DNA of 64,000 nt. Source: Alphaproteobacteria bacterium (GTDB lineage: Bacteria; Pseudomonadota; Alphaproteobacteria; Paracaedibacterales; CAITNM01). The notes beneath the pieces are model-generated. The model saw only the letters and a list, made by a program, of their open reading frames with translations, was not told the DNA's origin and searched no databases. Both the position numbers and the translations under genes were made by a program. This document shows, in pieces, positions 24,774 to 54,651 of this stretch. Where the stretch lies: the NCBI GenBank assembly GCA_947487955.1, contig CANKYV010000003.1, forward strand, positions 15,165 to 79,164, written 5' to 3'. The stretch's first letter is position 1; each line of letters begins with the position of its first letter.

Positions 24774-25182
24774 TTTTATATCATTACAGATAGGGCAGCA
24801 TCGTACATGATTATCACCCACATAAGAAGTGCTATATAAACTAAAACTTCATTGAGTTTTTCATTGATTAAAACAGCCTCGATCTTTTCAATCATTCGAC
24901 TTGTCATTTGATGACATGACCCTTCATAAATATCTAAAAAATTTTTTGGCCTTGCAATTTCAAGCTCCTCTCAAATAAATATTTGACATATTTTTTATCA
25001 AAATGCTATCCCATGCAAGCAATAATTTCTTCAATCATGGTATCTTTCGGGCACAAGAAGACTGAAGCCCCCATAAAACCCAACTGAAGTACGCACAAAT
25101 CTTTCAAAAACTTTGTTCTTTGCTTTATTTCATGCAATAAGCCAATTAAGTTAGGGCTCCAAATACATTGAAATTACTTAGC

Positions 25183-28394: not shown

Positions 28395-28834
28395 CTTACA
28401 CTCTTTAAATAATTAAGACTTAAATCACATAAAGATTGTACCCTTTTATCCTTTTTTATAAAAAATACATCTGGTTCAATGTTAGTTATTTCAATTGGCG
28501 GGGAGAATTCTACAAGTTCTTCAGTATTACTTTTTTTGAGATATTGATTATTTTGATAAAAATATATTTTCCCCTCACATAGAACCAAAACTTTCGAATA
28601 ATGCGATTTTTTTAACTTTTCTAAAGAGAGAGAACCTATTTTTATCAAGACCCAGTTAGATCGACAAAAAAAACCTCTTAGCAAATTTAGTGGCCTAAAG
28701 ATATACAATGATACAAACCCCATAATCAATGCATAAAAAATTTGTGTGACCCCTCCTAATAGGCCAGGATCAATATAAGCAAAACATTCGCTAGATTCTA
28801 ATAAAAGAATTAATATAAAAAAAAATTTTTTCAT
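28391..28834 (-). CDS. Hypothetical small membrane protein
   Basis: I chose the start at MKKFFFILILLL (28834). It has a signal/TM segment, then a YIDPGLLGG motif and a second TM segment. I recognise no family. It overlaps the next gene by 4 nt (translationally coupled). Confidence 0.45.
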   Translation of the reverse strand: MKKFFFILILLLESSECFAYIDPGLLGGVTQIFYALIMGFVSLYIFRPLNLLRGFFCRSNWVLIKIGSLSLEKLKKSHYSKVLVLCEGKIYFYQNNQYLKKSNTEELVEFSPPIEITNIEPDVFFIKKDKRVQSLCDLSLNYLKSVR

Positions 28835-28946
28835 TCTAAGTTTTCTCTCTTTTCTTAAAGCCCATGAAACTCCATGAAGCAGCCCCTCTGTTTCTACAAC
28901 AGATCTATAAACATCTCGGGAAATCACAACCCTAATCGATAGCAGC

Positions 28947-30164: not shown

Positions 30165-31696
30165 TATTTAACCGAGTACAATATATATGAAGCATTTTCT
30201 GATATCTTATTCAACGAGCTATAATTATAAGACCAATCACAATGAATTTTTATTTGATCATCCATATTTTTATCAACTAACACATGAGTTATAGAATAGC
30301 GAGTAAAAATTTCATCCCACTCATGCTTTAAAAAAGGCGGATCAGAAACAACTGTTTTCATATATTTTAGCGGGAATCTAACTCCTTGGTGAGAAAGCGC
30401 TTTACAACCTTTTCTTACAACAACAGCAGATCCAAGAGTATGTGGCACACAAAAAAAAGTATCATTTATTGAAAATGAGTGTTCATTTAAAATATCATCC
30501 AACAAATCTTTCTCTGGTATTTTAACATTCTTATTATAACGAATATAGATAATTATATTAAACAATGAATACAATAGGATCAGAGACATTATAATTGCTT
30601 GCTCTTCAGATTGCTGGAAAAACATTACAAACAGGAAAGGATTAAAAAATTTCAATAAATAATGAGGATATCTCTCACCTTCTCCGATAAAATTAAATTT
30701 TTTCGATGCTGTAATAGCATATAAAATCATGGGAATTATGAAAAATTTCAAATCAAGCGAACTATTATTTATGAATATTTCACAGAGAAATAAAAATAAG
30801 ACTTCTGGATTTTCCCAGAAAAATTTTATTGGTGGTCTGGAATAAAATAAATATAAAAACTGACCAAATGTTTTAACAGAAAGCATTTCACGAAAATCAG
30901 GATAGCCCTTACTAAGAATCACTTTTTTCATGAAAGTACCATTCTTATAAAACTTACAATAAGTCTTTAAAAAGTCAATCTGCTGCGCAATTCCTTTATT
31001 CAAATATTTACCATTTAATAAAGTTGCTACTATGTAAGAGGTTAATAGAAATCCTATCGGTACAAAGCTAATTGTAAAAATCGAGAGTAAGACTGATGAA
31101 AAAATAATCGCTTGTCGTGAAAATAGAGAAACAACCCAACATATAGAGCCAAAAAATATTATACAAAATGCAGAAAATGTATCTTGAAAAATAATAAAAA
31201 AATACAAAGATAAGTAATAGAAACTAGAAGATAAGCCCGCTAAAAACCTTTCAGATAGCATAATATTTAATATTTTATCTCCTTTTAAAATATATTGATG
31301 TGGCTGCAAAAATAAGAATAGAGTAAAAATAATAGTTTTTTCAAAAGCATTTCCTGAATAATATTTACTAAAAATATAAAATATATAACAGCAGAGAAAT
31401 CCATGAATAAACAAGCTAATAAGTAAATTAGGAAGAAATTGTTTTTTCTTTATTGTTTTTAAGTTAAAAAATGAGCATAACCAATGAAAAAATTTGGGAT
31501 ATGTGTCCAAACCATCTCTCATAATTAATTTAGGTATCCCTTCATATTTACTATTTTCTTTGAATTCTTGGACCATTAAAAAATGCCAAGATGTATCTCC
31601 TATAAAAGCCCTGCTGAACCATTTTTTATGTAAAAATGCAAGTATTATGTAAAAAAAGAAAGAGCATGCTATACCAAGCAAGAACGCTTTATACAT
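30164..31696 (-). CDS. Polytopic integral membrane protein of unknown function (candidate glycan polymerase, ligase or GT-C)
   Basis: 510 aa with more than 10 hydrophobic segments and F/I/L/Y-rich composition. Embedded in the glycan locus. I recognise no diagnostic motif. Confidence 0.5.
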   Translation of the reverse strand: MYKAFLLGIACSFFFYIILAFLHKKWFSRAFIGDTSWHFLMVQEFKENSKYEGIPKLIMRDGLDTYPKFFHWLCSFFNLKTIKKKQFLPNLLISLFIHGFLCCYIFYIFSKYYSGNAFEKTIIFTLFLFLQPHQYILKGDKILNIMLSERFLAGLSSSFYYLSLYFFIIFQDTFSAFCIIFFGSICWVVSLFSRQAIIFSSVLLSIFTISFVPIGFLLTSYIVATLLNGKYLNKGIAQQIDFLKTYCKFYKNGTFMKKVILSKGYPDFREMLSVKTFGQFLYLFYSRPPIKFFWENPEVLFLFLCEIFINNSSLDLKFFIIPMILYAITASKKFNFIGEGERYPHYLLKFFNPFLFVMFFQQSEEQAIIMSLILLYSLFNIIIYIRYNKNVKIPEKDLLDDILNEHSFSINDTFFCVPHTLGSAVVVRKGCKALSHQGVRFPLKYMKTVVSDPPFLKHEWDEIFTRYSITHVLVDKNMDDQIKIHCDWSYNYSSLNKISENASYILYSVK

Positions 31697-32453
31697 TTTT
31701 TACGCCTATAACTTCATAAATACCCACGTCGCCCAAGTATTCTTTTTGAAAAAATACGTCTTTATTGTTTGGATTGCCTAATAATCCTTCACCATCCCAT
31801 TTAATATCTTGCAAACCTAATTTTTCTGCCTCCTTAACTAATTGCTCAGGCTCTATAATAAGGTCACAAGGAAATGAAACATCAAGACCATTGTTATAAT
31901 TGTATGTGTTCTTCCAAGAATTGGCTGCAAGTAATTGTGGGTTATAATCGTCTGTTTTGTTATGCGCTGTATACCATAAATGTTTGTACCACCCAAAACC
32001 ATTAGCATTCACATATAATGCACCTCCTGGTTTTAAAACCCTTATTAATTCTGCTAACGATTTTTTCCAAGGAGTCAAAAATATAACCCCATATGAAAAA
32101 ACCGCATCAAAAAAATTATCCTCGAAGGGAAGCCTATCAATAAATCCATGCTGAACATTGATATTTGAAATGTTTTCTTTTAAAGATAATTCTTTTAAAA
32201 AAGTCACCCTCTCTTGACTTGCATCACATGAATAAACTTCATCATTAAGCTGAGACATAGCAATTGACCACTGCCCAAAACCACAACCGGCATCTAAAAT
32301 TTTTTCTTTATTTACAAACCCATATTGTTTTATACGATTTACGTAGGGAGAAACGCCTTTGTTAAATATTCTCTTTAAAAAATCTTTATCATTTTGCGAT
32401 AAATTAAGATCTTTTATGAATTTTTCTTCACTTACCAAAATTGATACACTCAC
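31689..32453 (-). CDS. Class I SAM-dependent methyltransferase
   Basis: 254 aa. Motif I ILDAGCGFGQWS, and FDAVFSYGVIFL...LKPGG. Confidence 0.85.
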   Translation of the reverse strand: MSVSILVSEEKFIKDLNLSQNDKDFLKRIFNKGVSPYVNRIKQYGFVNKEKILDAGCGFGQWSIAMSQLNDEVYSCDASQERVTFLKELSLKENISNINVQHGFIDRLPFEDNFFDAVFSYGVIFLTPWKKSLAELIRVLKPGGALYVNANGFGWYKHLWYTAHNKTDDYNPQLLAANSWKNTYNYNNGLDVSFPCDLIIEPEQLVKEAEKLGLQDIKWDGEGLLGNPNNKDVFFQKEYLGDVGIYEVIGVKNV

Positions 32454-33141
32454 TTAAAACCCCTACGTTTAAATTTTCTTTACAAGCAATTAGACTGTTC
32501 AACATGACAAGAGCACCAGAAAAATTAGCACGTCTTTTTGTTAAATCTATATCCATTGTTTTGGCCTCTAAAACATCTGCTTTCGCAGCATTATTATAAA
32601 AAATATGAACTGGATGAAAATTTAGAATAATAGGACCTGAAATTTTTTCCAAAAGACTATTCATATGCCATATCGGTTTTTTAACAGCAAATTCCAGATC
32701 ATCTTCCCAATTAAAAATTATTTTATAGATTGATCTTCCTTCATACTCAAATCGATACGGCCTTACATTATCAGCATAAGGTAAATAGGTAGACGCATCG
32801 TATTGAATGCTGGAACATTTTTTCATTATTTCAATAAAATAATTAGAGGTATTATATAAACCATGAGTTCTGACTCCAATAGGGCTAGGAATCCAATCCT
32901 TAAAATAGTTTATAACCACCTCAAAATTTTTTCCATGAGTTGAATTTTCTAAAAAATTTGGATGAATACCAACTTCAAATAATTCTTTTTTATCTATTAT
33001 TTTTTGAACTGCTTCTGAATAATGCGTTACAAAAAAAGTTGCTTTAATTTTATTTTCGATTAGCATATCTATTAAAAAATTTATTTGCTGCTCATTAGCC
33101 CAATCAAGATCAAATGTTGGATATACGTTTCTTTTAGACAA
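32428..33141 (-). CDS. Polysaccharide deacetylase-like protein (WbmS-type, tentative)
   Basis: 237 aa. The N-terminus TFDLDW...KATFFVTH...GIHPNF resembles the NodB-like/WbmS deacetylase pattern. Assignment is from memory of the family only. Confidence 0.4.
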   Translation of the reverse strand: MSKRNVYPTFDLDWANEQQINFLIDMLIENKIKATFFVTHYSEAVQKIIDKKELFEVGIHPNFLENSTHGKNFEVVINYFKDWIPSPIGVRTHGLYNTSNYFIEIMKKCSSIQYDASTYLPYADNVRPYRFEYEGRSIYKIIFNWEDDLEFAVKKPIWHMNSLLEKISGPIILNFHPVHIFYNNAAKADVLEAKTMDIDLTKRRANFSGALVMLNSLIACKENLNVGVLSECINFGK

Positions 33142-34048
33142 AATGCAGCCTTTTATGATTAGATTTCATCAATAATTCTTTTTCTTCGACGTCTTGAAGC
33201 AAAATAGCTCTTTTTGCACAAGATATATATATTTTGTTTTCGATAATCATGATTTGCCCTGGAATGCCGTGTATCTCTATATCAGCAATTGAAGCATCCC
33301 AAATTATAATTCTTTTTTCTTCTAGAAAACTATATGCTCCTGCATAGGGTTTTGAAGAAGCTTTAATTAAACGCAAAATTACTTCAGCATCATCCTTCCA
33401 ATTAATGTGGCTATCTTCAGGGCTTCTTTGCCCACAATAAGACAACAATCCTTCCTGCTCATATTTACGTATTGCACCATCCTGAATTTTTAGCAGTGAT
33501 CGTTGCAGCATTTGTAAAATAGCATCTTCACTTTTTTTAACTAAAGTCCCTATAACATCGCCTTTTTCAATAGAAAACGACATCTGATCATATAATAAGC
33601 CGTCATCAATACCGTCAGACAATTCGAAAAAACTCACTCCTGCTTCTTGATGGCCTAACAAAAGCGCCCAATTCAAAGGTGCCCCGCCTCGAAGTTTAGG
33701 CAACAAAGACGCATGAAAACCGCTACATCCTATTGGAAATATATCACGTAGTTTTTTTGGCATCATATGATACCACCCTACTACTATTGCAAAACTTTCT
33801 TCCGTTTGAAAATTTTTTAAAGCATCAATGGCTGAATCAGCACTTACGTAATTTATAACTGGAATATTTTTCTCTGATGCCCAATGATCTAAATCAACAA
33901 AACGCGCATTGTGAACACCTTCTGGTTTGTAACTAATCTTGAATGTTTGTGGAACAGTAACAACTGCTGCTATTTGATAAGAATTAGTATACAGAAATTC
34001 TGCAACTGATAAGGTTAAATCAGTAGATCCAAATAGTACAATATTCAC
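33134..34048 (-). CDS. Formyltransferase (Fmt/ArnA-N-like sugar N-formyltransferase)
   Basis: 304 aa. Catalytic motif HASLLPKLRGGAPLNWALL plus the C-terminal Fmt-like domain. Located in a sugar-modification context. Confidence 0.85.
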   Translation of the reverse strand: MNIVLFGSTDLTLSVAEFLYTNSYQIAAVVTVPQTFKISYKPEGVHNARFVDLDHWASEKNIPVINYVSADSAIDALKNFQTEESFAIVVGWYHMMPKKLRDIFPIGCSGFHASLLPKLRGGAPLNWALLLGHQEAGVSFFELSDGIDDGLLYDQMSFSIEKGDVIGTLVKKSEDAILQMLQRSLLKIQDGAIRKYEQEGLLSYCGQRSPEDSHINWKDDAEVILRLIKASSKPYAGAYSFLEEKRIIIWDASIADIEIHGIPGQIMIIENKIYISCAKRAILLQDVEEKELLMKSNHKRLHFV

Positions 34049-34051
34049 AAA

Positions 34052-35893
34052 TTAAGACCTTACCATACGTTTGAAAAACTGAATCATATACAACAACGAC
34101 CACACAGCCAGCCGGTTATTTTTTAAACCCGATGTATGTTCATCAAAAATCTTTTTCGCAACACTAAAATCAAAAATTTTAGGAATATTTGAAAATTCTT
34201 TTCTTACAAATTCAATACTTTCTCCCCTGAACCATGAAGCATCAGGAGATGAAAATCCTTGTTTTTTATTCTCAGTCACTTGCTTGTCTAAGTACTTGGA
34301 AAGCGTTTTACGTAAGATAGTTTTTCCCTCTTTGTATGCTTGCTTTTTACTAAATAGATCATTCTCATCAGCATTACTTATGCTATTTGCAATCTTCATA
34401 CTTACAGGAACTTTCATTGAAAAATCAACCAAATCATTATCTAGGAAGGGCACGCGTGTTTCTAAGCCGTGAGCCATACTAAGCTTATCTTCCACAACTA
34501 GCAAACCATGCAAAAATGTTTTTGCCTCTAGATATAAACTGTAATTGATGCATTCATCTGGTGTTAATGTATCTTTTTTAATATTTTTAAATACATCTGC
34601 AAAAACATCGCGCGTCCAAACGTGCTGAACCTCATCCCATATAGGGGCTAATAAATCTTTTAGTAAGCTATTTGGAATAAGCCGTTGCCATTTCAAATAG
34701 TATTGATCAATAAAATGATCAAAACTAATAGACGAATCTGTGTAAAAATACCGCCATGGATAACCTCCAAAAAATTCATCTCCGCCTGCGCCAGAAAGAA
34801 CAACTTTACCAAATTTACTTGCAAGTTTTGCTGCATAATAATTGGGATAACTTTGACCAACACGCGGTTCTTCAAGATGCCAAACATATTTATCCATACA
34901 ACGTTCCATATCGCCCGCTTTCAGCACCATTTCGTAATGTTCTGTTTTAGCAAGGTAGGAAATATGTTCAGCTTTGGCGCGTTCATCGAAAGATAATTCT
35001 AGTCCACTTGCTGAACTTAAATCAAAGCCAATGGTGAACGTTTTCATATGCGGCACGAATTGACCAGCAATCATTGAAATTGCACCTGAATCAATACCTC
35101 CACTCAAGTAGGCGTTGATATGCACATCGCTTACAAGTTGTCGTTGAACAGCCTGTTTAAAAAGACGATCCGTTTCTTCGATTGCTTCGCGTTCTGATAT
35201 TTTGAGAGAACCACAGAAGTTAAAATTCCAGTATTGAGTTTTCTCAATTTTTCCATTTGCTTTTGCATAGGCATAATTGCCAGGCATAAGCATTTTTACA
35301 TCTTGAAAAAGAGTTTTATCTGTAAAGAAATTTTGAAAAGTTAAGTACTCAACTAATCCTTCCTTATCAAGCGTCGATTGGTATAAGTTAGATGCCATAA
35401 TTGCTTTAATTTCAGAAGAAAAAATTAAATGCTGGTCTGTTAAACAGTAGTATAATGGCTTAATTCCATAACGATCGCGCGCTAAAAATAATTGCTTTTC
35501 TTTTTTATCCCAAATAGCAAAAGCAAACATTCCATTGAATTTTTTGACACATTCATGCTGCCATTCAGCAAATGCATTTAAGACAACTTCTGTATCAGTA
35601 TTTGAGTGAAATTGATAACCAAGCGATTCAAGCTGAACGCGTACTTCTTTAAAATTATAAACTTCACCGTTATATGTAATCGTGAAACGACCGTCTCTTG
35701 TTTGCATAGGCTGATGCCCTGCTGGACTTAAATCAATAATAGCAAGACGCCTATGCCCCAAACCAACAAAGCCATCGACATATTGCCCCTCTCCATCCGG
35801 CCCTCTATGAGCAATAATATCCGTCATAGCCTTAATTTGACTATGGGCAACAGGCTGCTTATTAAAATTAAAAATCCCTGCTATTCCGCACAT
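34052..35893 (-). CDS. Asparagine synthase-type glutamine amidotransferase (AsnB-like), paralog 2
   Basis: 613 aa. MCGIAGIF N-terminus, HRGPDG, HRRLAIIDLSPAGHQPM, and PP-loop AYLSGGIDSGA. Confidence 0.9.
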   Translation of the reverse strand: MCGIAGIFNFNKQPVAHSQIKAMTDIIAHRGPDGEGQYVDGFVGLGHRRLAIIDLSPAGHQPMQTRDGRFTITYNGEVYNFKEVRVQLESLGYQFHSNTDTEVVLNAFAEWQHECVKKFNGMFAFAIWDKKEKQLFLARDRYGIKPLYYCLTDQHLIFSSEIKAIMASNLYQSTLDKEGLVEYLTFQNFFTDKTLFQDVKMLMPGNYAYAKANGKIEKTQYWNFNFCGSLKISEREAIEETDRLFKQAVQRQLVSDVHINAYLSGGIDSGAISMIAGQFVPHMKTFTIGFDLSSASGLELSFDERAKAEHISYLAKTEHYEMVLKAGDMERCMDKYVWHLEEPRVGQSYPNYYAAKLASKFGKVVLSGAGGDEFFGGYPWRYFYTDSSISFDHFIDQYYLKWQRLIPNSLLKDLLAPIWDEVQHVWTRDVFADVFKNIKKDTLTPDECINYSLYLEAKTFLHGLLVVEDKLSMAHGLETRVPFLDNDLVDFSMKVPVSMKIANSISNADENDLFSKKQAYKEGKTILRKTLSKYLDKQVTENKKQGFSSPDASWFRGESIEFVRKEFSNIPKIFDFSVAKKIFDEHTSGLKNNRLAVWSLLYMIQFFKRMVRS

Positions 35894-35895
35894 AA

Positions 35896-37059
35896 CTAAA
35901 TAGATTTCAATCCTTCTATCACATAATCAAAATCTTCCTTGGTCATTTTATTGTGAAGTGGAATTGCCATCGTATTTTGATCGCAAGCTTTAGCACCTGG
36001 AAAATCATCAGCCTTAATTCCATATTTATCTTTATAAAAGGTCAGCATATGCACCGCATGCGTTCCTGGACGTGTTGCGATGCCTTTTTGCTGCAAAACA
36101 TCCATCATGTCATTACGTGGCATTGGTGCTATTTTTGGATCAACATAACAAACATAAGCCTGCCATGCATGCTGAGTAATATCCTTTAAAACTGCTTGAG
36201 GTTTTAACCACTCAATAGATTTTAATTGCTCAGTATAATACTCTGCCCAAGTTTGGCGCTCTTTAATAAACGATTGTAGTTTGCCAAGTTGCACTAACCC
36301 TACTGCAGCCTGCAAATCTGTCATACGATAATTAAAACCAAGCATTTTAAAATCAGGTAATAAATAAGGCTTTGCACTATTATGGCGAACTTCTTCTGAA
36401 ATTTCAGCACCGTGATTACGCATAATTTCAGCTAAACGGTTAAGATCTTTATCATTTGCTGTAACCATTCCACCTTCACCTGTTGTAATAGACTTTCGAG
36501 GATGGAAAGAAAAAGCAGCCATATCTCCAAGTGAACCAGCAAATCTACCCTTATAAGAAGCACCTGCAGCGCATGCAGCATCTTCTAGAATTTTCACATG
36601 TGAAGGAATCACAGCACGGATAGCATCAATATCGGCACACAAACCAAATAAATGAACAGGAATAATAGCTTTCGTGCGTTCTGTGATTTTTGATGCGATA
36701 TCTTCAACTTTGATATTAAACGTTGTGATATCAACATCGCAAAAAACAGGAGTAGCACCGCAATACAAAACAACATTTGCCGTTGCCACCCAAGTAAACG
36801 CAGGTACAATTACTTCATCACCAGGCCCAACGCCCATTGCTGCCAAAGCAAGGTGAAGAGCTGTTGTACACGAAGTTACGGCCAGTGCATGATTGACATT
36901 ATGCAGCTTCGAAAATTCTTTTTCAAAAGCAGAAACTTTTGGCCCTTGAGTTAGCCAACCGCTTAATAAAGGCTCCCTTATTGCTTGCCATTCTTCATCA
37001 GAAAGCGCTGGAACTGCAATGGGAATTTTTCTAATTTTTTCAGCTCCTTGTGTCATCAC
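35896..37059 (-). CDS. DegT/DnrJ/EryC1/StrS-family sugar aminotransferase
   Basis: 387 aa. PLP-lysine region AAFSFHPRKSITTGEGG and the family N-terminal pattern LSGWLTQGPKV..FE.EF. Confidence 0.9.
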   Translation of the reverse strand: MMTQGAEKIRKIPIAVPALSDEEWQAIREPLLSGWLTQGPKVSAFEKEFSKLHNVNHALAVTSCTTALHLALAAMGVGPGDEVIVPAFTWVATANVVLYCGATPVFCDVDITTFNIKVEDIASKITERTKAIIPVHLFGLCADIDAIRAVIPSHVKILEDAACAAGASYKGRFAGSLGDMAAFSFHPRKSITTGEGGMVTANDKDLNRLAEIMRNHGAEISEEVRHNSAKPYLLPDFKMLGFNYRMTDLQAAVGLVQLGKLQSFIKERQTWAEYYTEQLKSIEWLKPQAVLKDITQHAWQAYVCYVDPKIAPMPRNDMMDVLQQKGIATRPGTHAVHMLTFYKDKYGIKADDFPGAKACDQNTMAIPLHNKMTKEDFDYVIEGLKSI

Positions 37060-45908: not shown

Positions 45909-46754
45909 ATGAAAAAGTTTTTTTTACTAGGTATCTTTTTTCAAGCAATATCTTTAACTTGTAGCATTTTTTCAATGGAACAGGAGGAATTGTCTAATCA
46001 AAGTAATGCTTCAGTACATGGTGTTACGTTAAGTAAAAATCCCGAGAATCCCAATGAAATCTGGATCAGATTAAGCCCAGAGATGCCTACATTAATAAAT
46101 CCATTATTTGCAAGAATAAATTCTAAATTTGGTGTTTTTGTAACAGAAACATTTAGAGAGCACTTATTTTTTGTCCCCGAGGTATTCACCACGCAAGAAT
46201 CACAAGATTGGTATGTGGAAACCTTAATAAATCTAACTAGAGCATACGGATTTGATAGATTAGTAAATTCTGAGCTTATGCCAAAACTTAATATGAATAC
46301 TTTACCAACCATTATTTTTAATCCTTTTATCACAATTTTAAATGAAATTTATACCTGCGAATCACGTGTTAATGAAGTAGAGAGATTATTTTTATTCTGT
46401 GACGCCTTTATGAAAGGTTCAGAAATTGAGACTAAATTAACTAGCATAACAAGCTCTGAGGAAGGTGATAATACAGCGATTAGTGCTTTTTGTGAAGAAA
46501 AAGCACGAGAAAAAAATAGAATTGGTTCATTAAAAAATCTTATGATTGTAACTGATATTGGCTTTAAATATTTGGGCTATAGTAATCCCGCAGAAGCTCA
46601 AATGAACACTCACTTTGCAGTTCTCAAAACAAAAATAAAAGAGAGCGTAACAAGAATTACGTCTTTACTTAATGAATTGAGCAATCGAAAAACCATAGAA
46701 CAGCGCAATCAATACTTTACAAGTTTGTCTGAAGATATAGAGGAAGCGGCATAA
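45909..46754 (+). CDS. Hypothetical secreted protein (orphan)
   Basis: 281-aa ORF with a signal-like N-terminus (MKKFFLLGIFFQAISLTCSIFS). I recognise no family motif. Confidence 0.5.
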   Translation: MKKFFLLGIFFQAISLTCSIFSMEQEELSNQSNASVHGVTLSKNPENPNEIWIRLSPEMPTLINPLFARINSKFGVFVTETFREHLFFVPEVFTTQESQDWYVETLINLTRAYGFDRLVNSELMPKLNMNTLPTIIFNPFITILNEIYTCESRVNEVERLFLFCDAFMKGSEIETKLTSITSSEEGDNTAISAFCEEKAREKNRIGSLKNLMIVTDIGFKYLGYSNPAEAQMNTHFAVLKTKIKESVTRITSLLNELSNRKTIEQRNQYFTSLSEDIEEAA

Positions 46755-46871: not shown

Positions 46872-47979
46872 ATGAAGGCTGAAAATCTCCACAAAGTCAA
46901 TCAGATCGAACAAGCATTAACCTTGCTGAGGAGGCATCTTTGACTGGGACGCAGCTCAAAAACACTTACAAACATTAGATCAACAAGCTGAATCCTCCAC
47001 GCTTTGGGATAATCCTACTGCCGCTCAAAAAATACTAAAAGAACGAGATACGTTGAAAACAGCTTTAAAAAGAGTCGTTGATTTAAAGCAAGATCTTGAT
47101 GATACCGTAACTCTAATTGAGCTGGCAGAGGCAGAGCAGGATCAAGCTACAGAAGCAGAAGCAGAAAAAGAATTAGATATTTTGTGCGCAAAGGCACTTA
47201 AGCTTCAATTAGAAAGCCTGCTTTCTGGTGAAGCTGATACTTGCAATGCTTTCATTGAAATTAATGCAGGTGCTGGCGGAACTGAAGCCCAGGATTGGGC
47301 AGAAATACTAGCACGTATGTACACACGATGGGCTGACAGCAAAGGATACAAGCTTGAAATTTTAGATGAAAGCCCCGGAGAAGAAGCAGGCCTGAAATCA
47401 ATCACCATAAAAGTTGATGGGTTTAGATCATACGGATGGCTAAAAACTGAAAGCGGCGTGCATCGTTTAGTGCGCATTTCTCCTTTTGATTCAAACGCTC
47501 GTCGTCATACCAGTTTCGCTTCTGTTTGGGTATATCCTGAAGTTGATGAAAATATTGATATTCAAATTGAAGAAAAAGATTTAAGAATTGATACATACCG
47601 TGCCTCTGGCGCAGGTGGACAGCATGTTAATAAAACCGAAAGCGCCATTCGTATTACCCACCTTCCAACTAATATTGCGGTGCAGTGCCAAAGTGATCGC
47701 TCACAACACCGTAACCGAGCACAAGCCTACACTATGTTGCGCGCCAGACTTTATGAACTTGAACTACGTGAACGAGAAGCAAAAGCAAATGCTAACAGCA
47801 GCTCAAAAACTGACATCGGCTGGGGACACCAAATTCGCTCATACGTCCTGCAACCATACCAAATGGTAAAAGACACAAGAACCGGTGTAGAACGCGGCAA
47901 TGCCCAAGGCGTGCTTGATGGTGATATTGATGTGTTCTTAGAAGCAAGCCTTGCTCAACGCATTGGCGAGAGCGACTAA
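46872..47979 (+). CDS. prfB: Peptide chain release factor 2, expressed through a programmed +1 frameshift (46872..46940 joined to 46942..47979)
   Basis: Frame 0 reads MKAENLHKVNQIEQALTLLRRHL, then an in-frame TGA at 46941. The +1 frame continues DWDAAQKHLQTLDQQ... into the ORF-track ORF (47053..47979), which carries SPF and GGQ (RASGAGGQHVNKTES). Confidence 0.95.
46928..46944 (+). promoter_or_regulatory. prfB +1 frameshift cassette (internal SD-like GAGGAGG, CTT slippery codon, TGA C)
   Basis: The sequence is GAGGAGG CAT CTT TGA C. This matches the canonical RF2 autoregulatory site, which has an SD-like element 3 nt before CUU UGA C. Confidence 0.9.
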
Positions 47980-48043
47980 CCTAATTAATAAAATATTAAG
48001 TGTTAATAACATAGAATAAAAAATAATTTTTAATTATTTTTTA

Positions 48044-49045
48044 ATGTATCAATATTTAGTATTTCTATTTCTTTCATTTCCTCAATTGTGGGCAGATGTT
48101 TTTCCTCTTGTGTCATTTGCAGGGAAAAGGTATACAATTCCGTTCGCTCGCCATATATCTCATGATCACGATGATAAATATTACGAAATATATTTTAAAA
48201 GCCTTGTAAAAAAATACAAACGAGACAGAATCAGTGATATGCCAGAGGTCATGCATGATCCTTTTAGTGTCCCTTATTCTACAATTAGCTGGCAAATGGA
48301 AGGTTTAGGAGCTTTTGTACCAGAATACGAACAAGGATCAGAGAAAATAAGAGTATATATAGCAAAAAAAAGACGATATGAAACTCATCCTCAAGCAGTA
48401 ATGGATCCTTTAGATTTTTCAACAATTACTAATGAATCTCATACTGAAAGACAACTCCTCAAAAAATTCTTAGATGACAAGCCTACAGGTATTTGTGGAA
48501 CTATTCTCATATTTACCGACAGCACCCCCTGCCAAGCACCTCATGCTGATAATAATCTTCTTTCTTGCACAGATTTTTATACTTTTTTAGCTGAAAGATT
48601 TCCAAACGTATCCTTCAAAATTTTTTTTAGATCCATGCGCATCGAAGAAAGTATCAAAAAAAGTGAGTATAAAAAGCTACTAGATTTCATTAGGATATAT
48701 TGTGAAGAAGCGTCAAGAGCTGGAATTGCAGATAATTATTTTCGATTAGCTATTATCAAAAAAAATGAACTAGGGGCAAAACTTTCAGAAGCGAGTGAGC
48801 ATTTGGAAGCAAGTGAGCATTTGGAAGCAATAGATGCAAAAGAAATAGTGTTAGAATATAAAGCTCAGCCAAAGAACCCACAAAATAACCGGTGGGAAAA
48901 AATTACTAATAACAGTTTTCCCATAACGATTATTAGACAAGTTAACTCTTGGCTTACCACGTTAAATTTTGAAACAAAAAACAAGCTATTTAATCATGTT
49001 TTCTCTTGGGACAAAGTAACGTATTGCCTCCTTGACAATGATTAA
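48044..49045 (+). CDS. Secreted hypothetical protein with an AID/APOBEC-like zinc-deaminase signature (candidate nucleic-acid deaminase effector)
   Basis: Signal-like N-terminus MYQYLVFLFLSFPQLWA. The central segment is SHTERQLLKKFL-(x17)-ILIFTDSTPCQAPHADNNLLSCTDFYTFLAERFPNVSFKIFF. This gives HxE, then 26 residues, then PC, then a Cys, then an FL...PNV.F.IF helix/strand pattern like AID/APOBEC. The confidence value refers to the functional call; the ORF itself is solid. Confidence 0.45.
   Translation: MYQYLVFLFLSFPQLWADVFPLVSFAGKRYTIPFARHISHDHDDKYYEIYFKSLVKKYKRDRISDMPEVMHDPFSVPYSTISWQMEGLGAFVPEYEQGSEKIRVYIAKKRRYETHPQAVMDPLDFSTITNESHTERQLLKKFLDDKPTGICGTILIFTDSTPCQAPHADNNLLSCTDFYTFLAERFPNVSFKIFFRSMRIEESIKKSEYKKLLDFIRIYCEEASRAGIADNYFRLAIIKKNELGAKLSEASEHLEASEHLEAIDAKEIVLEYKAQPKNPQNNRWEKITNNSFPITIIRQVNSWLTTLNFETKNKLFNHVFSWDKVTYCLLDND
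48788..48829 (+). repeat. 18-bp in-frame tandem repeat (2.3 copies; encodes EASEHL EASEHL EA)
   Basis: GAAGCGAGTGAGCATTTG / GAAGCAAGTGAGCATTTG / GAAGCA, read directly from the sequence. There is one synonymous difference between the copies. Confidence 0.9.
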
Positions 49046-49581
49046 ACTGTAATCTTTTTTACACTCTTATAGTTTTTGCCAGTTATGCTTGAATCAACTG
49101 GATTACTAGAAAGGTTTAATTCATCTAGTGCAGCACCTATAAAAGGAATGTTACTTAGCGCCTTCTCAAACAATTGGACATCTCTTCCTAAGTTATTCCC
49201 GCTTAAATTAATTTTTAAAACTGTATAAGGATGTATAAATCCTAATAAGCTCATTAATTTATCATCAGTAATTTGGCAATTAGTGATACTTAGCTCTGAA
49301 ACAGCAAAACCATACAAGAATGCAAAATCTTCAGTTTCCGAAAAAGCACAAGCATCAATTGATAAGCTTCTTAATTCTTCCTTATTAAATTCAAAGACGT
49401 CCCATTTTTCCCAAAAAGCGCAATCAATCTCTAGATTTTTCAGTTTAACGGATTTTAACGACGTCCCAACTGGCAACAACAGGGCATTCCAAGCATTCCC
49501 ACCATCAACATCTAAATCCATTCCATGAAGACCAAAAAACGTCGCGCAAAAAAAGATAAAAATGCGGACTTTTTTTGTCAT
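49042..49581 (-). CDS. Secreted leucine-rich repeat protein (ribonuclease-inhibitor-type LRRs)
   Basis: 179 aa. Signal-like N-terminus MTKKVRIFIFFCATFFGLHG. Repeats include LKNLEIDCAF, LRSLSIDACAF, VSELSITNCQITDDKLMSLL, LKINLSGNNLG and LDELNLSSNPV. Confidence 0.7.
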   Translation of the reverse strand: MTKKVRIFIFFCATFFGLHGMDLDVDGGNAWNALLLPVGTSLKSVKLKNLEIDCAFWEKWDVFEFNKEELRSLSIDACAFSETEDFAFLYGFAVSELSITNCQITDDKLMSLLGFIHPYTVLKINLSGNNLGRDVQLFEKALSNIPFIGAALDELNLSSNPVDSSITGKNYKSVKKITV

Positions 49582-49670
49582 ATTAATAAGATGAAAAATT
49601 TAACTACCAAAAGATAACATAAAATTATTAATTTTCAAAAGCTTCTTTAAATAAATTCTATAAAAAACTT

Positions 49671-50078
49671 CTAGCTTATCGGTGGATTTTTAGAGTTTCT
49701 AAACTCATTCTGCTGATTTGCTAAAACTTCTTTCAGCAGAACTTTCAATTCCTGGATTTCACGCTCAGCTTTTAGGTTAATATGATAATCTTTCTCAGCT
49801 TGAATTCTATCTTTTGCCTCTTGACGATTTTGACTCATCATAATAATTGGCGCCTGTAATGCTGCAATACATGAAAGAACTAAATTTAAAAATATGTAAG
49901 GATAAGGATCAAATGGTTGGCGAAAAATCACCCAAGAATTAAGAACAATCCATATAATAAGCATCATCTTAAAAAGAATAATAAATGTCCAACTCCCACC
50001 AAATTTGGCAACTTTATCAGCCCATCTTTCTCCCATAGTATTTTGTTGAGAACTATCTTTTGGAAAATTCTTTTTCAT
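49671..50078 (-). CDS. DUF1003-family membrane protein
   Basis: 135 aa. ADKVAKFGGSWTFI, then two TM segments with FDPYPYIFLNLVLS..AALQAPIIMMSQNRQ and a C-terminal coiled segment, which is the DUF1003 pattern. Confidence 0.75.
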   Translation of the reverse strand: MKKNFPKDSSQQNTMGERWADKVAKFGGSWTFIILFKMMLIIWIVLNSWVIFRQPFDPYPYIFLNLVLSCIAALQAPIIMMSQNRQEAKDRIQAEKDYHINLKAEREIQELKVLLKEVLANQQNEFRNSKNPPIS

Positions 50079-50101: not shown

Positions 50102-53059
50102 TTATTCAGTTTCAGTCACATACCTTAACCAAAGTCGTGATATTTTTTCCAACAAACTATTTTGTCGACTGCGATTTTGCAAATCTTCAAATGGCATAGA
50201 TTGCATCAGTAATTCCTGATTTTTACAACAAAACTGTGGACCATCTCCATTTACAATCATGCATTGCCCACATATGCCTTGCATCATGCATTGCATAGGA
50301 ACGTTAACATTGGTAATTGTTTTAAGATTATTATTTAGCGACTTTTCTAACAAAAGAAGCTCTTTAGAAATAGCCTCCTGCATAGATGTTGATCCCATCA
50401 CAAAAAGCCAATCAACAGTTTGCAAAATATTTTCATCTTTTAAACAATACAACCCATCTATAGCATTTCCATGATTTTCATCAGCTTTAGCCTCTGCGTA
50501 ATACCACAATATTTTATCTGAAGCTAATTCAATTTCCTCAACATGTGTTCTATCAGTACTTGATCGGTATCCAGCTATCCAGTAAACCTTATTACCTTTT
50601 TCTTTTAATGCTTTCCCCATATGGATAAGGGCCAGATTAAAATGTCCACCCCCTATCAATAAAACATTTTGATTGCTAGGCAATTCAGTTGGCGTACCCG
50701 TGGGTCCCATTAAAGCTACAGTTTCTCCAGGTCGCAAAAATTGCGCTAGCATCGAAGAGCTTCCTATTTCCACAATCACAAAGGTAATGATTCCGCTTAC
50801 TTTATCAACTTTAACAGGTGTAAGCGCTAAAGCTTCCATGGCCAAGCGAGTGTCGTTCACAATAGGGGCAAGGGATTCAAAATTTTGAAGACGATAAAAT
50901 TGACCTGGTTGAAATGTTGCAGCAGCAAGAGGTGCTTTAACGTCGATTTGGATAAGATTTTTCGCAAGACGCGTTACGGTTAAGACCTCAGCTTTTAGCA
51001 AGTCATTCCACTCAACTTTAGGCAAAGGTGAGTTAGCTTTTAGGCTTTCACTAATATTTTGATAACCGTACTTTGCACTAGCAATTGCTTTTACCACACT
51101 TCCTGCATAACTAGGATGCGCGTCTCCAAAACTCAGGTGATTTTGATTTAATGGCTCGTGATGCGTTCCAACTGCCATAATAATACAACGCGCTGAAATA
51201 AATTCTTCTTTGTCATTACGTATTACCCACAAACCTTTTGCATACCCCGTGTCATCTTTTTCAATACGCAAAGGCACTAAGTTATGCTCAAAAATAATAC
51301 CTTCTTCTAGCGCTTTTTCAACTTCTTCATGATTTAAAGAATAGCTTGGCGCATTAGTGATATCAGAGCGGTAAATAATTCGAACTTCTGTCTCTTCACA
51401 AGTTAATAACTGTTCTGCGACAAGATGGTCCTGAACAGTCCACCACTTTTTAATCTCTTCTTCTCCATAAATTTCTAGCAACTTGTTATAACGATGCTTA
51501 AATTTTTTTACTTGCTCTTTGTAATAAGCCTTAGCTTCAGTTGCAGTATCAATTGCCGTTAGACCTCCACCAATTACCAAAATAGGACCCAAAATTTGTA
51601 AATTAGCTAAGGAATCTTTTTTTGCAGCACCCGTTAACTGCAATCCCATCAAAAAATCACTAGCTAAACGTACTCCAGGCGTTGATATTCCAGGTATATC
51701 TAATAACTTTGGCGCTCCTGCTCCTGTACATAAGGTAACAGCATCAATACCTAGTTGTTTATAATTACCTTCATGAATTTGTCCCCCAAAGCGGGTCGAG
51801 CCAAAAAATTGAATATTGTTTCTACGCTCAAGTAACAACCGTATTATTTTTAAATAATTTTTATTCCAACGAACCGTAATGCCATATTCCGCTACACCAC
51901 CAAAGCCACTAAGAATGCGCTCATCCAAATTCTCATAAAGCATGCTCACATCTTTAATTAATTTTTTTTCTAAAAGCTCAGCTGATAATGGCTCAAGCTT
52001 GGCGCCATCAATACCCACTACCATATGCCCATCTCGACTCAGATAATGCGCCAAACTAAATCCAGCTGGACCCAACCCCACAACAAGGACTTGGTAACCA
52101 GTCTCAGGCATAGGTAAAGGTTGGGTAAGATTCAACGGATTCCAACGAGTCAACAAACTATAAATTTCAAACCCATAAGGCAAGCTCAGAACTGAATTTA
52201 AAATATTAGTTTCAGCTCCAGGTGTATTTACAGGACTTTGCTTTTGAAAAATGCACGACTTCATACAGTCATTACAAATGCGATGTCCTGTTGCTGCAAC
52301 CATAGGATTATCAATCATAATTACAGCAAGTGCAGCGATGTTCATTTCCTTGCGCTTTAAAACATGCATCTGCGAAATTTTTTGATCTAGTGGACAACCA
52401 GCTTTTTTAGGGCTCTGAGCAATTCCTGTGCGGCAACTATCTTTGCCTTGATTGTGGCACAAAATACAGTAATGCGTTTCACCTACTGATTGCTCGTTTG
52501 AAAAACCAGTATCAGTTAAAGAAAAACCGTCTCGCTCTCTGTGATTAGTCGTCACATATGAATGATCAACTTGTTTTATATTTCGTAGCAAAAAATTAGA
52601 ATTAATTTTTTCAGGCAAACAAAAAAGTGAATCAAATTTATGTTTTTGCTGCCCTTGGGACGTAAACACGGCCCATGCAGCATATTTCGCCAAATCATCC
52701 AAATGCGATGATTGCTGCTCAAGAGCACCGAGCGCAACTTTAGCAAATGTCAGCGCATTCGTAAAAGTATATAAATGTTGCCAATCATCTTGTGGAGTAC
52801 AAAATTCTTTCAATGCATAACGTTGTACAAATTGTCGTTTTGCAAAGGCTATAAGACTGTATTCAGAAGCATTTAGATAAAGCTCAGACAAAGTCTCGTT
52901 CAAGCTGAATTCTTCACATAAAAATTCTTCTAAATACTCTGCTGTCTCAATGAGTTCAAAACTAAAATCAGGATCTTTTGTTTTTACAAACTGTAAAAAA
53001 CATTCATGTAGTTTGCTTAACCCTTGAAGGGAATATAATGTATCGTAATCTAATTTCAT
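50102..53059 (-). CDS. Multidomain oxidoreductase: unknown N-terminal domain, GltD-like Fe-S/FAD/NAD(P) module and PyrK/NfnA-like FAD-[2Fe-2S] module
   Basis: Cys clusters CILCHNQGKDSC..GCP and GHRICNDCMKSC. Dinucleotide motifs VLVVGLGPAGFSLA and ILVIGGGLTAID. The C-terminal ferredoxin-reductase-like part ends in CMMQGICGQCM. I prefer the start at MKLDYD (53059) because a hairpin occupies 53060-53088; 53092 is the alternative. Confidence 0.75.
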   Translation of the reverse strand: MKLDYDTLYSLQGLSKLHECFLQFVKTKDPDFSFELIETAEYLEEFLCEEFSLNETLSELYLNASEYSLIAFAKRQFVQRYALKEFCTPQDDWQHLYTFTNALTFAKVALGALEQQSSHLDDLAKYAAWAVFTSQGQQKHKFDSLFCLPEKINSNFLLRNIKQVDHSYVTTNHRERDGFSLTDTGFSNEQSVGETHYCILCHNQGKDSCRTGIAQSPKKAGCPLDQKISQMHVLKRKEMNIAALAVIMIDNPMVAATGHRICNDCMKSCIFQKQSPVNTPGAETNILNSVLSLPYGFEIYSLLTRWNPLNLTQPLPMPETGYQVLVVGLGPAGFSLAHYLSRDGHMVVGIDGAKLEPLSAELLEKKLIKDVSMLYENLDERILSGFGGVAEYGITVRWNKNYLKIIRLLLERRNNIQFFGSTRFGGQIHEGNYKQLGIDAVTLCTGAGAPKLLDIPGISTPGVRLASDFLMGLQLTGAAKKDSLANLQILGPILVIGGGLTAIDTATEAKAYYKEQVKKFKHRYNKLLEIYGEEEIKKWWTVQDHLVAEQLLTCEETEVRIIYRSDITNAPSYSLNHEEVEKALEEGIIFEHNLVPLRIEKDDTGYAKGLWVIRNDKEEFISARCIIMAVGTHHEPLNQNHLSFGDAHPSYAGSVVKAIASAKYGYQNISESLKANSPLPKVEWNDLLKAEVLTVTRLAKNLIQIDVKAPLAAATFQPGQFYRLQNFESLAPIVNDTRLAMEALALTPVKVDKVSGIITFVIVEIGSSSMLAQFLRPGETVALMGPTGTPTELPSNQNVLLIGGGHFNLALIHMGKALKEKGNKVYWIAGYRSSTDRTHVEEIELASDKILWYYAEAKADENHGNAIDGLYCLKDENILQTVDWLFVMGSTSMQEAISKELLLLEKSLNNNLKTITNVNVPMQCMMQGICGQCMIVNGDGPQFCCKNQELLMQSMPFEDLQNRSRQNSLLEKISRLWLRYVTETE

Positions 53060-53088
53060 AAAAATAAGGGGCGCTCTTTCAGCACCCC
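53060..53088 (-). terminator. Candidate rho-independent terminator downstream of tlc
   Basis: The minus strand reads GGGGTGCT-GAAAG-AGCGCCCC (8 bp, one G-U pair) followed by TTATTTTTAT. It begins 37 nt after the tlc stop. Confidence 0.55.
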
Positions 53089-53124
53089 TCATACTAGCTT
53101 AATCGTAGCTTTTTAACAGCTAGA

Positions 53125-54651
53125 TTATACTTCACCTAGTTTTTGCTTCTGCGCAGCTGCTTTCACCTTTACTGAAAGTGCTTTTACAGCATATAGCCAA
53201 GCTACTGCAATGATTGCAAACACAGCAAAAGCAATCGGAGCAATCGACACAACATCTTTAGTTGCAAAAGCAATCAGCAACATGTTTTGCACGAATGCAC
53301 CACCAGCTTTACCAGCACGACCACCAATTACATCAACTGCAGCCTTACCTTTTGTTTTTAGCTCATCATCCAACGGAATGTATGCCATTTCCTTTGTTGG
53401 ATCAAACAAAATATATTTAATTGCTTTTGATACAACAACGATGCCAAGTCCAATGAACATAGCAGCAGCAATAGCATGCGTGTTAAACATTTGCAAAATT
53501 GGTTCCATTAGACCTTCTGCAAGAATTAAGCAGAAGAAAGCTCCTCCAGCTACCAAAATTACTAATGGAGTAACCATCGCAGCTTTCGCCCAACTTACTT
53601 TTCTTAAAATATTTGAACCTATTGTTAAACCAAATAGAATAGTAAAAATACCAGTTGCTGTAGACAAAATACCCATATAGTAGTTAAAGAGTCCTTTATC
53701 GCCAGAGCAGAATAAACCTAACTGATTCTTCCACTGTACTTCAACTAAGTTAATAGTAACTCCATAAGCCATAATCAAAAGAGCGATTAATCCAAGCTCA
53801 GGTGAGTGAATAATAAGCTTGAAGCTTTCAGCAAGACCTGGTTTTTCTTTTTTCTTCTTCACAACCACTTCTGCAGGATCAAAGTAAAGCTTATCGGTCA
53901 GAACTTCTTTATGCATCCAACGATACATATACATAGCAATTAGTCCCATTGCTACTACTGTAGACATAAGAAGGTATAGCGTTACTTGCCAAGGGTCTGT
54001 TCCCTCTGGAACCATATGCTTAATATGTTCCGAACAAAACATAACTGTAGGACCAGACACAACAAGAGCTGCGTTACCAATAACTGCAAAAAGTCCATAA
54101 AAACGCTTTGATTCGCGCATACGCACAACATGGTTTGCAAACTGCCAAAACATCAAGGCAATCATTGCGCTTCCCCAAATTTCAGAAAGCACATAGAACA
54201 ACGAAAATGCCCAGTATGCGTATAAATCAATAAACCCACTTAAAGCAGGATATGCAGCATGTAATGCTTGTACTGATTCAACTGAGGGATGAAGTAAGTG
54301 AAGATTAGGGTAAATGATAAAACCAAACACTCCAAAAAACACAACGAAGGGTGTAACAACCGCATAGAATACATTTTCACGTGTCATAATATTTGTTAGC
54401 TTTGCATACAAAACAACAAACAATATTGCTGCTGGTGTAACACAATATAACTTCAAAAATGTAATGGCTCCTGCACCTGCTGAATTCACCACAAGAGAAT
54501 CCTTCGTATCACGAAGCACCGTGTAGTTAAATAACAGGCAGAACATGATAACACCAAGCGGTATAAATTTCTTTAATTCATGTGAATGTATTGGCCAAAG
54601 CCGAGCACGTAGGCCCGTAAACTCTGGTGTCGATTTATCTGATTTACTCAT
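53125..54651 (-). CDS. tlc: ATP/ADP translocase (NTT-family nucleotide transporter)
   Basis: 508 aa, about 12 TM segments. The N-terminus LRARLWPIHSHELKKFIPLGVIMFCLLFNYTVLRDTKDSLVV and the later FWQFANHV and AAVDVIGGRAGKAGGA segments are characteristic of rickettsial/chlamydial Tlc/Npt1. Confidence 0.9.
   Translation of the reverse strand: MSKSDKSTPEFTGLRARLWPIHSHELKKFIPLGVIMFCLLFNYTVLRDTKDSLVVNSAGAGAITFLKLYCVTPAAILFVVLYAKLTNIMTRENVFYAVVTPFVVFFGVFGFIIYPNLHLLHPSVESVQALHAAYPALSGFIDLYAYWAFSLFYVLSEIWGSAMIALMFWQFANHVVRMRESKRFYGLFAVIGNAALVVSGPTVMFCSEHIKHMVPEGTDPWQVTLYLLMSTVVAMGLIAMYMYRWMHKEVLTDKLYFDPAEVVVKKKKEKPGLAESFKLIIHSPELGLIALLIMAYGVTINLVEVQWKNQLGLFCSGDKGLFNYYMGILSTATGIFTILFGLTIGSNILRKVSWAKAAMVTPLVILVAGGAFFCLILAEGLMEPILQMFNTHAIAAAMFIGLGIVVVSKAIKYILFDPTKEMAYIPLDDELKTKGKAAVDVIGGRAGKAGGAFVQNMLLIAFATKDVVSIAPIAFAVFAIIAVAWLYAVKALSVKVKAAAQKQKLGEV

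Follow-up and report, generated by a model that had tools for sequence, protein, structure and literature searches.

A putative Sec-exported bacterial clade of AID/APOBEC-like deaminases linked to a leucine-rich repeat protein in a Paracaedibacteraceae-like alphaproteobacterium

Toxin deaminases of bacteria, probably of endosymbionts, have been argued to be the ancestors of the eukaryotic AID/APOBEC enzymes (Iyer et al. 2011, PMC3239186; Krishnan et al. 2018, PMC5889660), and the routes of transfer from bacteria to eukaryotes have been drawn as alternative scenarios only (PMC5889660). The only bacterial AID/APOBEC-like domains named in 2011 were in B3gp45 of a Wolbachia endosymbiont and in PSEBR_m1207 of Pseudomonas brassicacearum, and host nucleic acids were proposed as the targets of endosymbiont deaminase toxins (PMC3239186). 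Here we analyze a 64,000-nucleotide stretch of DNA (the window; contig CANKYV010000003.1 of assembly GCA_947487955.1, an alphaproteobacterium), in which a gene at 48044..49045 (+) encodes a 333-aa protein of this kind. Our verdict is that the protein belongs to a new Sec-exported bacterial clade in the helix-4 (AID/APOBEC-like) division of the deaminase fold. It is probably, although not securely, a zinc deaminase acting on polynucleotide cytosine, complexed with a co-exported leucine-rich repeat (LRR) protein and aimed at host or co-resident nucleic acids.

Like the Wolbachia and P. brassicacearum domains, the present family is bacterial, AID/APOBEC-like and in the helix-4 division, and it shares with them an endosymbiont setting in which host nucleic-acid targets, without a classical immunity gene, have been proposed (PMC3239186). 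The earlier domains are described with SpvB and RHS-repeat delivery modules, and the Wolbachia version is said to be phage-encoded (PMC3239186), whereas the proteins described here stand alone behind a Sec signal, have a PC-x(10-12)-C motif and come with an LRR partner. We set the two groups apart on their descriptions. We found no description of the present family in the literature searched, within the coverage of that literature, and it has no Pfam model of its own.

A preliminary description, made from the sequence alone, had reported a 333-aa open reading frame (ORF) with a deaminase-like central block, and this ORF is present as described, with the N-terminus MYQYLVFLFLSFPQLWA and the central block SHTERQLLKKFLDDKPTGICGTILIFTDSTPCQAPHADNNLLSCTDFYTFLAERFPNVSFKIFF. 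An identical 333-aa protein is present on ENA contig k141_1558230. The H-x-E, 26 residues, PC spacing can be read directly from the sequence. H133-T-E135 (48440..48448, cat act gaa, +; family motif HTERQL) would provide the zinc-ligand histidine and the catalytic glutamate at the start of helix 2, and 26 residues separate E135 from P162. P162-C163 (48527..48532, +), conserved in the family and aligned with the SPC of AID, is predicted to carry the second zinc ligand at the end of strand 3. The loop QAPHADNNLLS (48533..48565, +), with its conserved D169-N170, puts 11 residues between C163 and C175 (48566..48568, +), the third predicted zinc ligand and first residue of helix 3 according to conservation, the AlphaFold2 model and hhalign. 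The bare motif is too weak to carry a deaminase reading, because the loose pattern H.E.{23,30}PC.{2,12}C picked out, in addition to true TadA-type deaminases and the deaminase family itself, two unrelated ORFs in a set of 2612 (100 aa or longer) drawn from the window and 83 fetched loci, a chance rate of about 1 per 1000 ORFs. That the motif stands well above chance therefore follows from its conservation across a 53-sequence alignment of the family.

The sequences for this alignment, which we call A3, came from an exhaustive HMMER scan of 1.84 billion representatives (clusters at 50% identity). The scan gave 55 relatives at E<1e-3, of which 10 also had E<1e-10. Those that we looked up all came from metagenome-assembled genomes (MAGs) and metagenomes, and had no name or were called 'hypothetical protein'. 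A word-indexed protein search returned only two relatives, P0001 and P0002 (445-449 aa), which are 53-55% identical to the window protein over its N-terminal third, and the same type of search with the family profile returned only four. A pattern scan of genome contigs with a 3-sequence alignment gave no match. A3 is too divergent to seed a locus scan, so a 10-sequence subset was used instead, yielding two metagenome loci and no family member on viral contigs. PADLOC gave no defence-system match. Family members are stand-alone proteins of 210-592 aa in which nothing but a signal peptide precedes the domain, and a Pfam scan of the 53 found no repeat or trafficking domain in them.

In A3, H133, E135, Q137 and C163 are invariant (53/53), and T134, R136, L138, G152, T158, P162, C175 and Y179 are conserved in at least 90% of members, with T134, R136, L138 and C175 each kept in 52/53 and P162 in 49/53. 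The histidine, the glutamate, the PC pair and the distal cysteine thus stay put across the family. Two conserved cysteines, C163 and C175, bracket the start of helix 3. The preliminary description had called an 11-residue separation of the cysteines atypical, which is borne out as a family-wide trait, most members having PC-x(10-12)-C. Within the loop N170 is kept in 47/53 and D169 in 33/53. The histidine at position 167, which had been put forward as an alternative zinc ligand, can be set aside, as only 4/53 members have it. The distance from the glutamate to PC is 24-34 residues in short members and rises to 43-83 where an insert separates helix 2 from strand 3. Common motifs of the family are an N-terminus ending [G/A]|DV[F/V], WQMxGxAxFxP, VYVAKKR, HTERQL and GxLxIYTxxxPC-x(10-12)-CxxYYxLAxxFPNVxFHIYF. 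The C-terminal ~130 aa had been thought to lack a motif, but they contain the common pattern W...N..L...FN....Y[H].I and fold with the domain. Here W284, N301, L304, F316, N317, Y327, H328 and I330 are the commonest residues of their columns, in 28-40 of the 53 sequences (F316 in 40, N317 in 31).

Zinc motifs interrupted in this way have precedents. APOBEC4 has CxxxxxC, and inserts between the cysteines are known in AID/APOBEC-like deaminases (AADs) of nematodes, cnidarians and algae and in Tad1 (PMC3239186), so that zinc cysteines separated by an insert are not without parallel. The nematode insert is a zinc-chelating domain, in contrast to the short, Cys/His-poor loop with a conserved D-N that we see here.

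Profile comparisons tie the family to polynucleotide deaminases, including AID/APOBEC. When the 53 members were compared with Pfam, ten matched NAD1 (best E 2.3e-5), eight APOBEC_N (best E 3.1e-6), seven SNAD4 (best E 9.7e-5), four Toxin-deaminase (best E 1.7e-4) and three XOO_2897-deam (best E 3.3e-3). There were also single matches to APOBEC1, APOBEC3 and APOBEC4 and two to APOBEC2. P0009 (27.7 bits) and P0020 (25.3 bits) score above the APOBEC_N gathering threshold of 25, with matches that span HxE to strand 4; only relatives, not the window protein, do so. Both are tied to the window protein by the HMMER scan, at E = 4.5e-12 for P0009 and E = 1.1e-8 for P0020. We considered whether Pfam NAD1 might be the nematode clade with a cysteine insert that was called 'novel AID/APOBEC-like' in 2011, and ruled this out, since NAD1 is a vertebrate clade.

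We also aligned the family with AID by hhalign, using an AID profile of 22 species seeded with human AID, a sequence 100% identical to a Homininae entry. A3 matched this profile with P = 0.0047 over aa 103-197, the trimmed family core with a score of 27.5 (P = 0.0012) and a 17-sequence short-loop subset with P = 0.0037. Against the 27.5, reversed AID scored 14.3 and 20 column-shuffled AID alignments scored 8.9-15.6. The register is constant in all runs, with H133/E135 on HVE, P162-C163 on SPC, C175 on the second cysteine of the AID PCxxC across a 9-residue gap, and FPNVSFKIFF on PNLSLRIF of the aligned AID sequence. The segment after the cysteine had been likened to helix 3 and strand 4 of AID, and this is exactly the register that hhalign gives.

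AlphaFold2 with the 53-sequence alignment gave a model with a predicted local distance difference test (pLDDT) of 86.7 and a predicted template modelling score (pTM) of 0.84; the single-sequence model (pLDDT 32.6) was unusable. According to DSSP on this model, the elements (a, helix; b, strand) would follow in the order a1-b1-b2-a2(HxE)-b3-a3(C175)-b4-a4-b5 and then C-terminal helices: a1 at aa 44-63, b1 at 83-93, b2 at 103-110, a2 at 134-143 starting at HTE, b3 at 152-158, a3 at 175-185 starting at C175, b4 at 189-195, a4 at 206-225 (pLDDT 95-98) and b5 at 233-239. The deaminase core takes in aa ~80-240 (48281..48763, +), with the blocks of 130-240 at pLDDT 91-98. This is the element order of the cytidine deaminase (CDA) fold, as far as a predicted structure goes. 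In the model helix 4 lies between strands 4 and 5, after a 10-residue b4-a4 connection (196-205). A parallel b5 and not a b4-b5 hairpin is predicted from this helix, the strand direction being read from the connectivity. After strand 5 the model has a variable insert of lower confidence at aa ~240-265 (48761..48838, +; pLDDT 57-60 for aa 241-260), gapped in most members, and then a family-specific C-terminal part (48839..49042, +; pLDDT 93-98) with a hairpin at 266-286, helices at 293-304 and 309-320 and a strand at 325-329. The two helices thus appear in the model as extra helices past b5, as in AID/APOBEC, and are preceded by the insert and the hairpin. We noted inside the insert an 18-bp tandem repeat (48788-48830; Tandem Repeats Finder, 2.4 copies, 96% matches) that encodes copies of EASEHL.

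In a Foldseek search of the PDB with the model, every one of the 11 best matches was APOBEC1, APOBEC3H, AID, APOBEC3C or APOBEC3A (probability 0.96-1.00), led by APOBEC1 6x91 (E 2.7e-3, probability 1.00) and including AID 5w0r and 5w1c, at sequence identities of 11-18%. The Pfam, hhalign and Foldseek signals independently point to one superfamily. Of the outcomes that the preliminary description had named as fatal to the deaminase idea, lack of the fold in model and profile comparisons and variation at the H/E/C positions were both checked, and neither occurred.

Set beside vertebrate AID/APOBEC (APOBEC_N, PF08210), the family is alike in the helix-2 HxE, the PC at the end of strand 3, the second cysteine at the start of helix 3, the helix 4 between strands 4 and 5 and the extra helices past strand 5. 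It is unlike them in being bacterial, in having a signal peptide and in having 10-12 residues between the cysteines instead of 2. HTERQL stands where AID/APOBEC has H[AV]E. The tryptophan of SWS-PC is replaced by a consensus of I-Y-T-x-x-x-P-C, so that the strand-3 W and SxS before PC are absent from the window protein (F-T-D-S-T-P-C), and a tryptophan occurs in single members only, e.g. TEWAPC in P0009. Further differences are a strand meander added at the N-terminus and a hairpin that precedes the last helices.

A Sec-type hydrophobic N-terminus had been noted in the preliminary description, and it recurs throughout the family. We predict a Sec-type signal peptide at aa 1-17 (MYQYLVFLFLSFPQLWA; 48044..48094, +), with cleavage before D18-V-F, from the family-wide N-terminal pattern. 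A strict test, requiring a hydrophobic N-terminal segment followed by [GASC][DEA]V[FVLIY], was passed by 37/53 members, and most of the remaining members are close variants (A|EV, A|SV) or N-terminally truncated fragments. In A3 the residue at position 18 is D in 41/53 and that at position 19 is V in 46/53. The N-terminus fits a cleaved Sec signal, judged by its residue pattern. The protein had previously been called a candidate secreted effector with an APOBEC-like core. The APOBEC-like part of this claim is supported by the predicted fold and profiles. Secretion can be followed only as far as a predicted Sec export to the periplasm, and we keep 'secreted effector' as a candidate reading.

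Directly downstream, on the opposite strand, we noted a gene for a 179-aa protein (49042..49581, -) that matches Pfam LRR_1 (22.3 bits) and has an N-terminus predicting export. The deaminase and LRR genes are convergent, and their stop codons overlap in the palindrome TTAA (49042-49045), leaving no intergenic space; we found no terminator-like hairpin in 47800-49800, and promoter and terminator scans around the deaminase gene gave nothing informative. A hidden Markov model (HMM) built from five partner sequences finds a match directly adjoining the deaminase gene in seven of nine contexts (the window and loci L001, L007, L084, L085, L088 and L089). In L090 an LRR-like ORF lies upstream, as judged by eye, and L087 has no LRR neighbour. 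The deaminases in the LRR-linked contexts are ~27-55% identical to the window protein (local BLAST alignments), and the linkage is kept across three different gene orders, convergent in the window, L084 and L089, and co-directional in L085 and L088, where the LRR gene comes second after a gap of 25-38 bp. All seven partners have signal-peptide-like N-termini. In L006, a 'Proteobacteria' MAG whose synteny with the window is otherwise intact, prfB abuts the DUF1003 gene, and the deaminase gene and the small LRR ORF are both missing. Because they are missing together, we regard the two genes as one unit of insertion or deletion, and because of the conserved linkage and this joint absence we think that the two proteins work together. 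The linkage was not part of the preliminary description and is new here.

The partner profile (A6) has its best PDB matches in ribonuclease inhibitors, namely 1dfj (E 1.7e-13), 1z7x and 1a4y (1.7e-13 to 4.5e-11), with ribonuclease inhibitor chains matched overall at E = 1.7e-13 to 2.9e-9; these values are the sum of weak single-repeat matches to many inhibitor repeats, so they give the class of repeat and not orthology. The partners have ~3-4 repeats of 28-29 residues, LxxLxLxxCxLxxxxxxxL, of the ribonuclease-inhibitor type, and their Pfam LRR_1 and LRR_6 matches are weak. A functional analogy may be drawn with RNase A and ribonuclease inhibitor, in which a nucleic-acid enzyme that is exported is likewise paired with an LRR protein of this type; the present partner differs in having so few repeats and in being itself exported, whereas ribonuclease inhibitor is cytosolic.

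From these data we infer zinc binding, deaminase activity, a substrate, release past the periplasm and a role for the LRR protein as follows. The 17-residue signal peptide would carry the protein across the inner membrane and be cut off before D18-V-F. H133, C163 and C175 of the mature domain would then hold a zinc ion, which activates water, and E135 would shuttle a proton as in AID/APOBEC enzymes, converting cytosine to uracil in a polynucleotide that is probably single-stranded. The D-N loop of 10-12 residues between the cysteines and the b4-a4 loop probably line the substrate groove. The deaminase and the co-exported ribonuclease-inhibitor-type LRR protein would make up a two-gene module. 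In this module the most likely part of the LRR protein is to bind the deaminase, whether to inhibit it stoichiometrically, to chaperone it or to direct it to a target. Because the bacterium appears to be a Paracaedibacteraceae-like protist symbiont, host-cell nucleic acids, or those of competing agents within the host cell, are the most likely targets.

Several results weigh against this proposal. The window protein itself has no match in Pfam (even at E<=10), NCBIfam or PDB sequences (phmmer), and family profiles of 3, 53 and 17 sequences match no deaminase in PDB sequences. The hhalign probabilities are only 7-19%, which is under the usual HHpred confidence, and the Foldseek matches have weak E-values (2.7e-3 to 2e-2) and TM-scores of 0.2-0.4. 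The model was judged by its element order, and convergence of H133, C163 and C175 on one site is presumed. The predicted zinc cysteines depart from the canonical PCxxC spacing of 2-4 residues, at 11 in the window protein and 10-12 in the family. The Sec signal predicts the periplasm only, and no secretion system is linked to the deaminase gene. The partner is itself exported, which would be unexpected for an immunity protein against a nucleic-acid toxin. Toxin deaminases of the BURPS668_1122 type also match weakly (22.1 bits), and a Q two residues past the catalytic glutamate is a trait of the BURPS668_1122 group (PMC3239186). Because of these weak matches and this Q, placement within the deaminase superfamily is not settled.

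The best-surviving alternative, to which we give a minor but real chance, is an inter-bacterial toxin-immunity pair in which the exported deaminase kills competing bacteria that share its host cell or environment and the LRR protein, of the Imm-LRR type, intercepts the toxin in the periplasm of kin. Among the immunity proteins of polymorphic toxin systems, Imm-LRR is an established class (PMC3482391), and most bacterial deaminase clades are toxins of such systems, many with a signal peptide only, assigned to type II secretion ('T2SS') (PMC3239186). Toxin deaminases (BURPS668_1122, SCP1.201/DddA-type and DYW-like SsdA) resemble the present proteins in being exported bacterial nucleic-acid deaminases with an adjacent gene for a small binding protein, and four family members have the weak Toxin-deaminase matches given above. 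L085 and L088 show the usual order of toxin and then immunity gene, and the members are highly divergent, at 55 clusters at 50% identity. The architecture, however, is not that of a polymorphic toxin, the C-terminal domain of a long trafficking or repeat protein; the domain stands alone, lacking any trafficking, RHS or filamentous region at the N-terminus, and no cassette array is present. Toxin deaminases belong to the C-terminal-hairpin division, without a helix between strands 4 and 5, whereas the present model has a helix at 206-225. Their immunity proteins are not LRR proteins and are cytoplasmic, the normal site of immunity to nucleic-acid toxins, whereas all seven partners here have N-termini that look like signal peptides. 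Gene order varies (convergent, upstream, downstream), two of the nine contexts have no HMM-detected partner, and endosymbionts are reported usually to lack classical polymorphic toxins with immunity genes (PMC3239186).

A periplasmic or surface deaminase of free bases, nucleosides, nucleotides or a small amine, used in nutrient scavenging without polynucleotide editing, is quite improbable. The deaminase fold takes in many small-molecule enzymes (PMC3239186); the bacterium imports nucleotides through a TLC translocase, and export to the periplasm is all that the signal predicts. On the other side, all matches are to polynucleotide deaminases (APOBEC_N, NAD1, SNAD4 and toxin deaminases) and none to CDA, dCMP or guanine deaminases. 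Fast divergence, large variable inserts and absence from the closest relative would be unexpected of a metabolic enzyme, and a metabolic gene would not typically be linked with one for a protein-binding LRR partner. It is more improbable still that the motif is accidental or a relic in an inactive structural or binding protein or pseudo-enzyme, as its chance rate in ORFs, the non-canonical cysteine spacing and the lack of direct database matches might suggest, since H, E and the first cysteine are invariant and the second cysteine nearly so among proteins 20-45% identical, as expected of a working active site, and a confident model with deaminase topology and three independent comparisons agree on the superfamily.

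The secreted eukaryotic AADs, SNAD1-4 of vertebrates and sponges and the AADs of dictyosteliids, share with the Sec-exported deaminase that we propose a signal peptide followed by an AID/APOBEC-like domain, remodelling after strand 5, rapid divergence and clade-specific inserts (PMC5889660). SNAD4 ranks in the top three Pfam families by number of members matched, yet all of its matches are under threshold (17-23 bits against 27; best 22.9). These proteins differ in being eukaryotic, with signal peptides for the endoplasmic reticulum and disulfide-rich extensions, whereas the present family has bacterial gene contexts and lacks the extensions; no LRR partner has been described for them. It is conceivable, although we consider it doubtful, that, among bacteria, the present family lies nearest to the source of the secreted AID/APOBEC-like deaminases of eukaryotes, such that the ancestors of SNAD, dictyosteliid AADs and, in the end, AID/APOBEC were effectors Sec-exported by protist endosymbionts such as Holosporales, in a binary system with a masking or targeting LRR protein like ribonuclease inhibitor. 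If this were true, it would provide a concrete donor group for the proposed transfer from bacteria to eukaryotes and a new pair of enzyme and inhibitor, in which an APOBEC-like editor could be switched off by its natural protein partner. With at least 55 unnamed clusters, occurrence in relatives of protist symbionts and a signal peptide like that of the secreted eukaryotic versions, the question of origin can be tested by phylogeny and structure. Holosporales host interaction is poorly understood, and an exported deaminase would be a concrete effector candidate. Compact deaminases with new loop architectures are also sought as base editors, for which the cognate LRR binder could, pending activity, serve as an inhibitor.

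The gene order of the window is that of the P0002 locus: purC, bolA, grxD, rlmE, an ORF, prfB and the deaminase gene, followed on the opposite strand by the small ORF and the genes for a DUF1003 protein, a 996-aa flavoprotein and TLC. By the flavoprotein, the nearest genomes are Ca. Finniella (75% identity), the 'Proteobacteria' MAG L006 (77%) and a Ca. Odyssella MAG, L007 (76%). Finniella and Odyssella belong to the Holosporales, family Ca. Paracaedibacteraceae, and are intracellular symbionts of amoebae and amoeboflagellates. A TLC ATP/ADP translocase gene (53125..54651, -; E 1e-169) lies 4 kb from the deaminase gene. Together with the nearest genomes, the translocase supports an intracellular bacterium, as had been supposed. 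The host genome is Paracaedibacteraceae-like (Holosporales) and of the endosymbiont type. The GC content of the deaminase and LRR genes is 33.7%, within the 31.8-43.7% of their neighbours, so we rejected a recent foreign island.

In L007, the deaminase homolog (13004-13427) and the DUF1003 gene (14157-15324) are both split by frameshifts. Because the DUF1003 gene is also split and the contig coverage is ~8x, the split may be an assembly error, which is at least as likely as pseudogenisation. In a Ca. Finniella MAG (CAYUNR01, contig 7; L087, 8001-10744) we noted a second, non-syntenic member, P0014 (445 aa), next to hemC and followed by a 341-aa ORF with a faint Pfam match to AvrB_AvrC, a type III effector family. 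The context of P0014 indicates that family members can occupy other loci, possibly effector-rich ones. The metagenome Ga0256405 has two different members (L089 and L090) on two contigs, each with an LRR-type neighbour, a hint that one community, or one genome, may hold several copies.

The TLC translocase is a marker of energy parasitism, and its gene adjoins that of the 996-aa Pyr_redox_2 flavoprotein (50102-53092, -), which has full-length relatives (~40% identity) across Proteobacteria, Acidobacteriota and Planctomycetota. Upstream of prfB, a 281-aa ORF (45909-46754) has an N-terminus like a signal peptide and belongs to no Pfam or NCBIfam family. Because this ORF is kept at the same position in relatives, including L006, we count it as core synteny and not as part of the deaminase/LRR module. 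The prfB gene for release factor 2 (46873-47979) has the classical programmed +1 frameshift: the ATG at 46873 opens a short frame into CTT TGA C (46938-46944), with AGGAGG before it, and the mechanically called ORF starts at TTG 47053. Farther upstream, at ~21000-36000 (-), is a long same-strand block with the lowest GC content of the window (29-32% around 26-34 kb), which includes two asparagine-synthase-family genes (23067-24821 and 34052-35893) and a sulfatase-family gene (25183-26991) and may be a cluster for surface-polysaccharide or lipid modification. The sole Rfam match in the window is a 90-nt tRNA at 20825-20914 (+; 59.4 bits), the length of which suggests a long variable arm.

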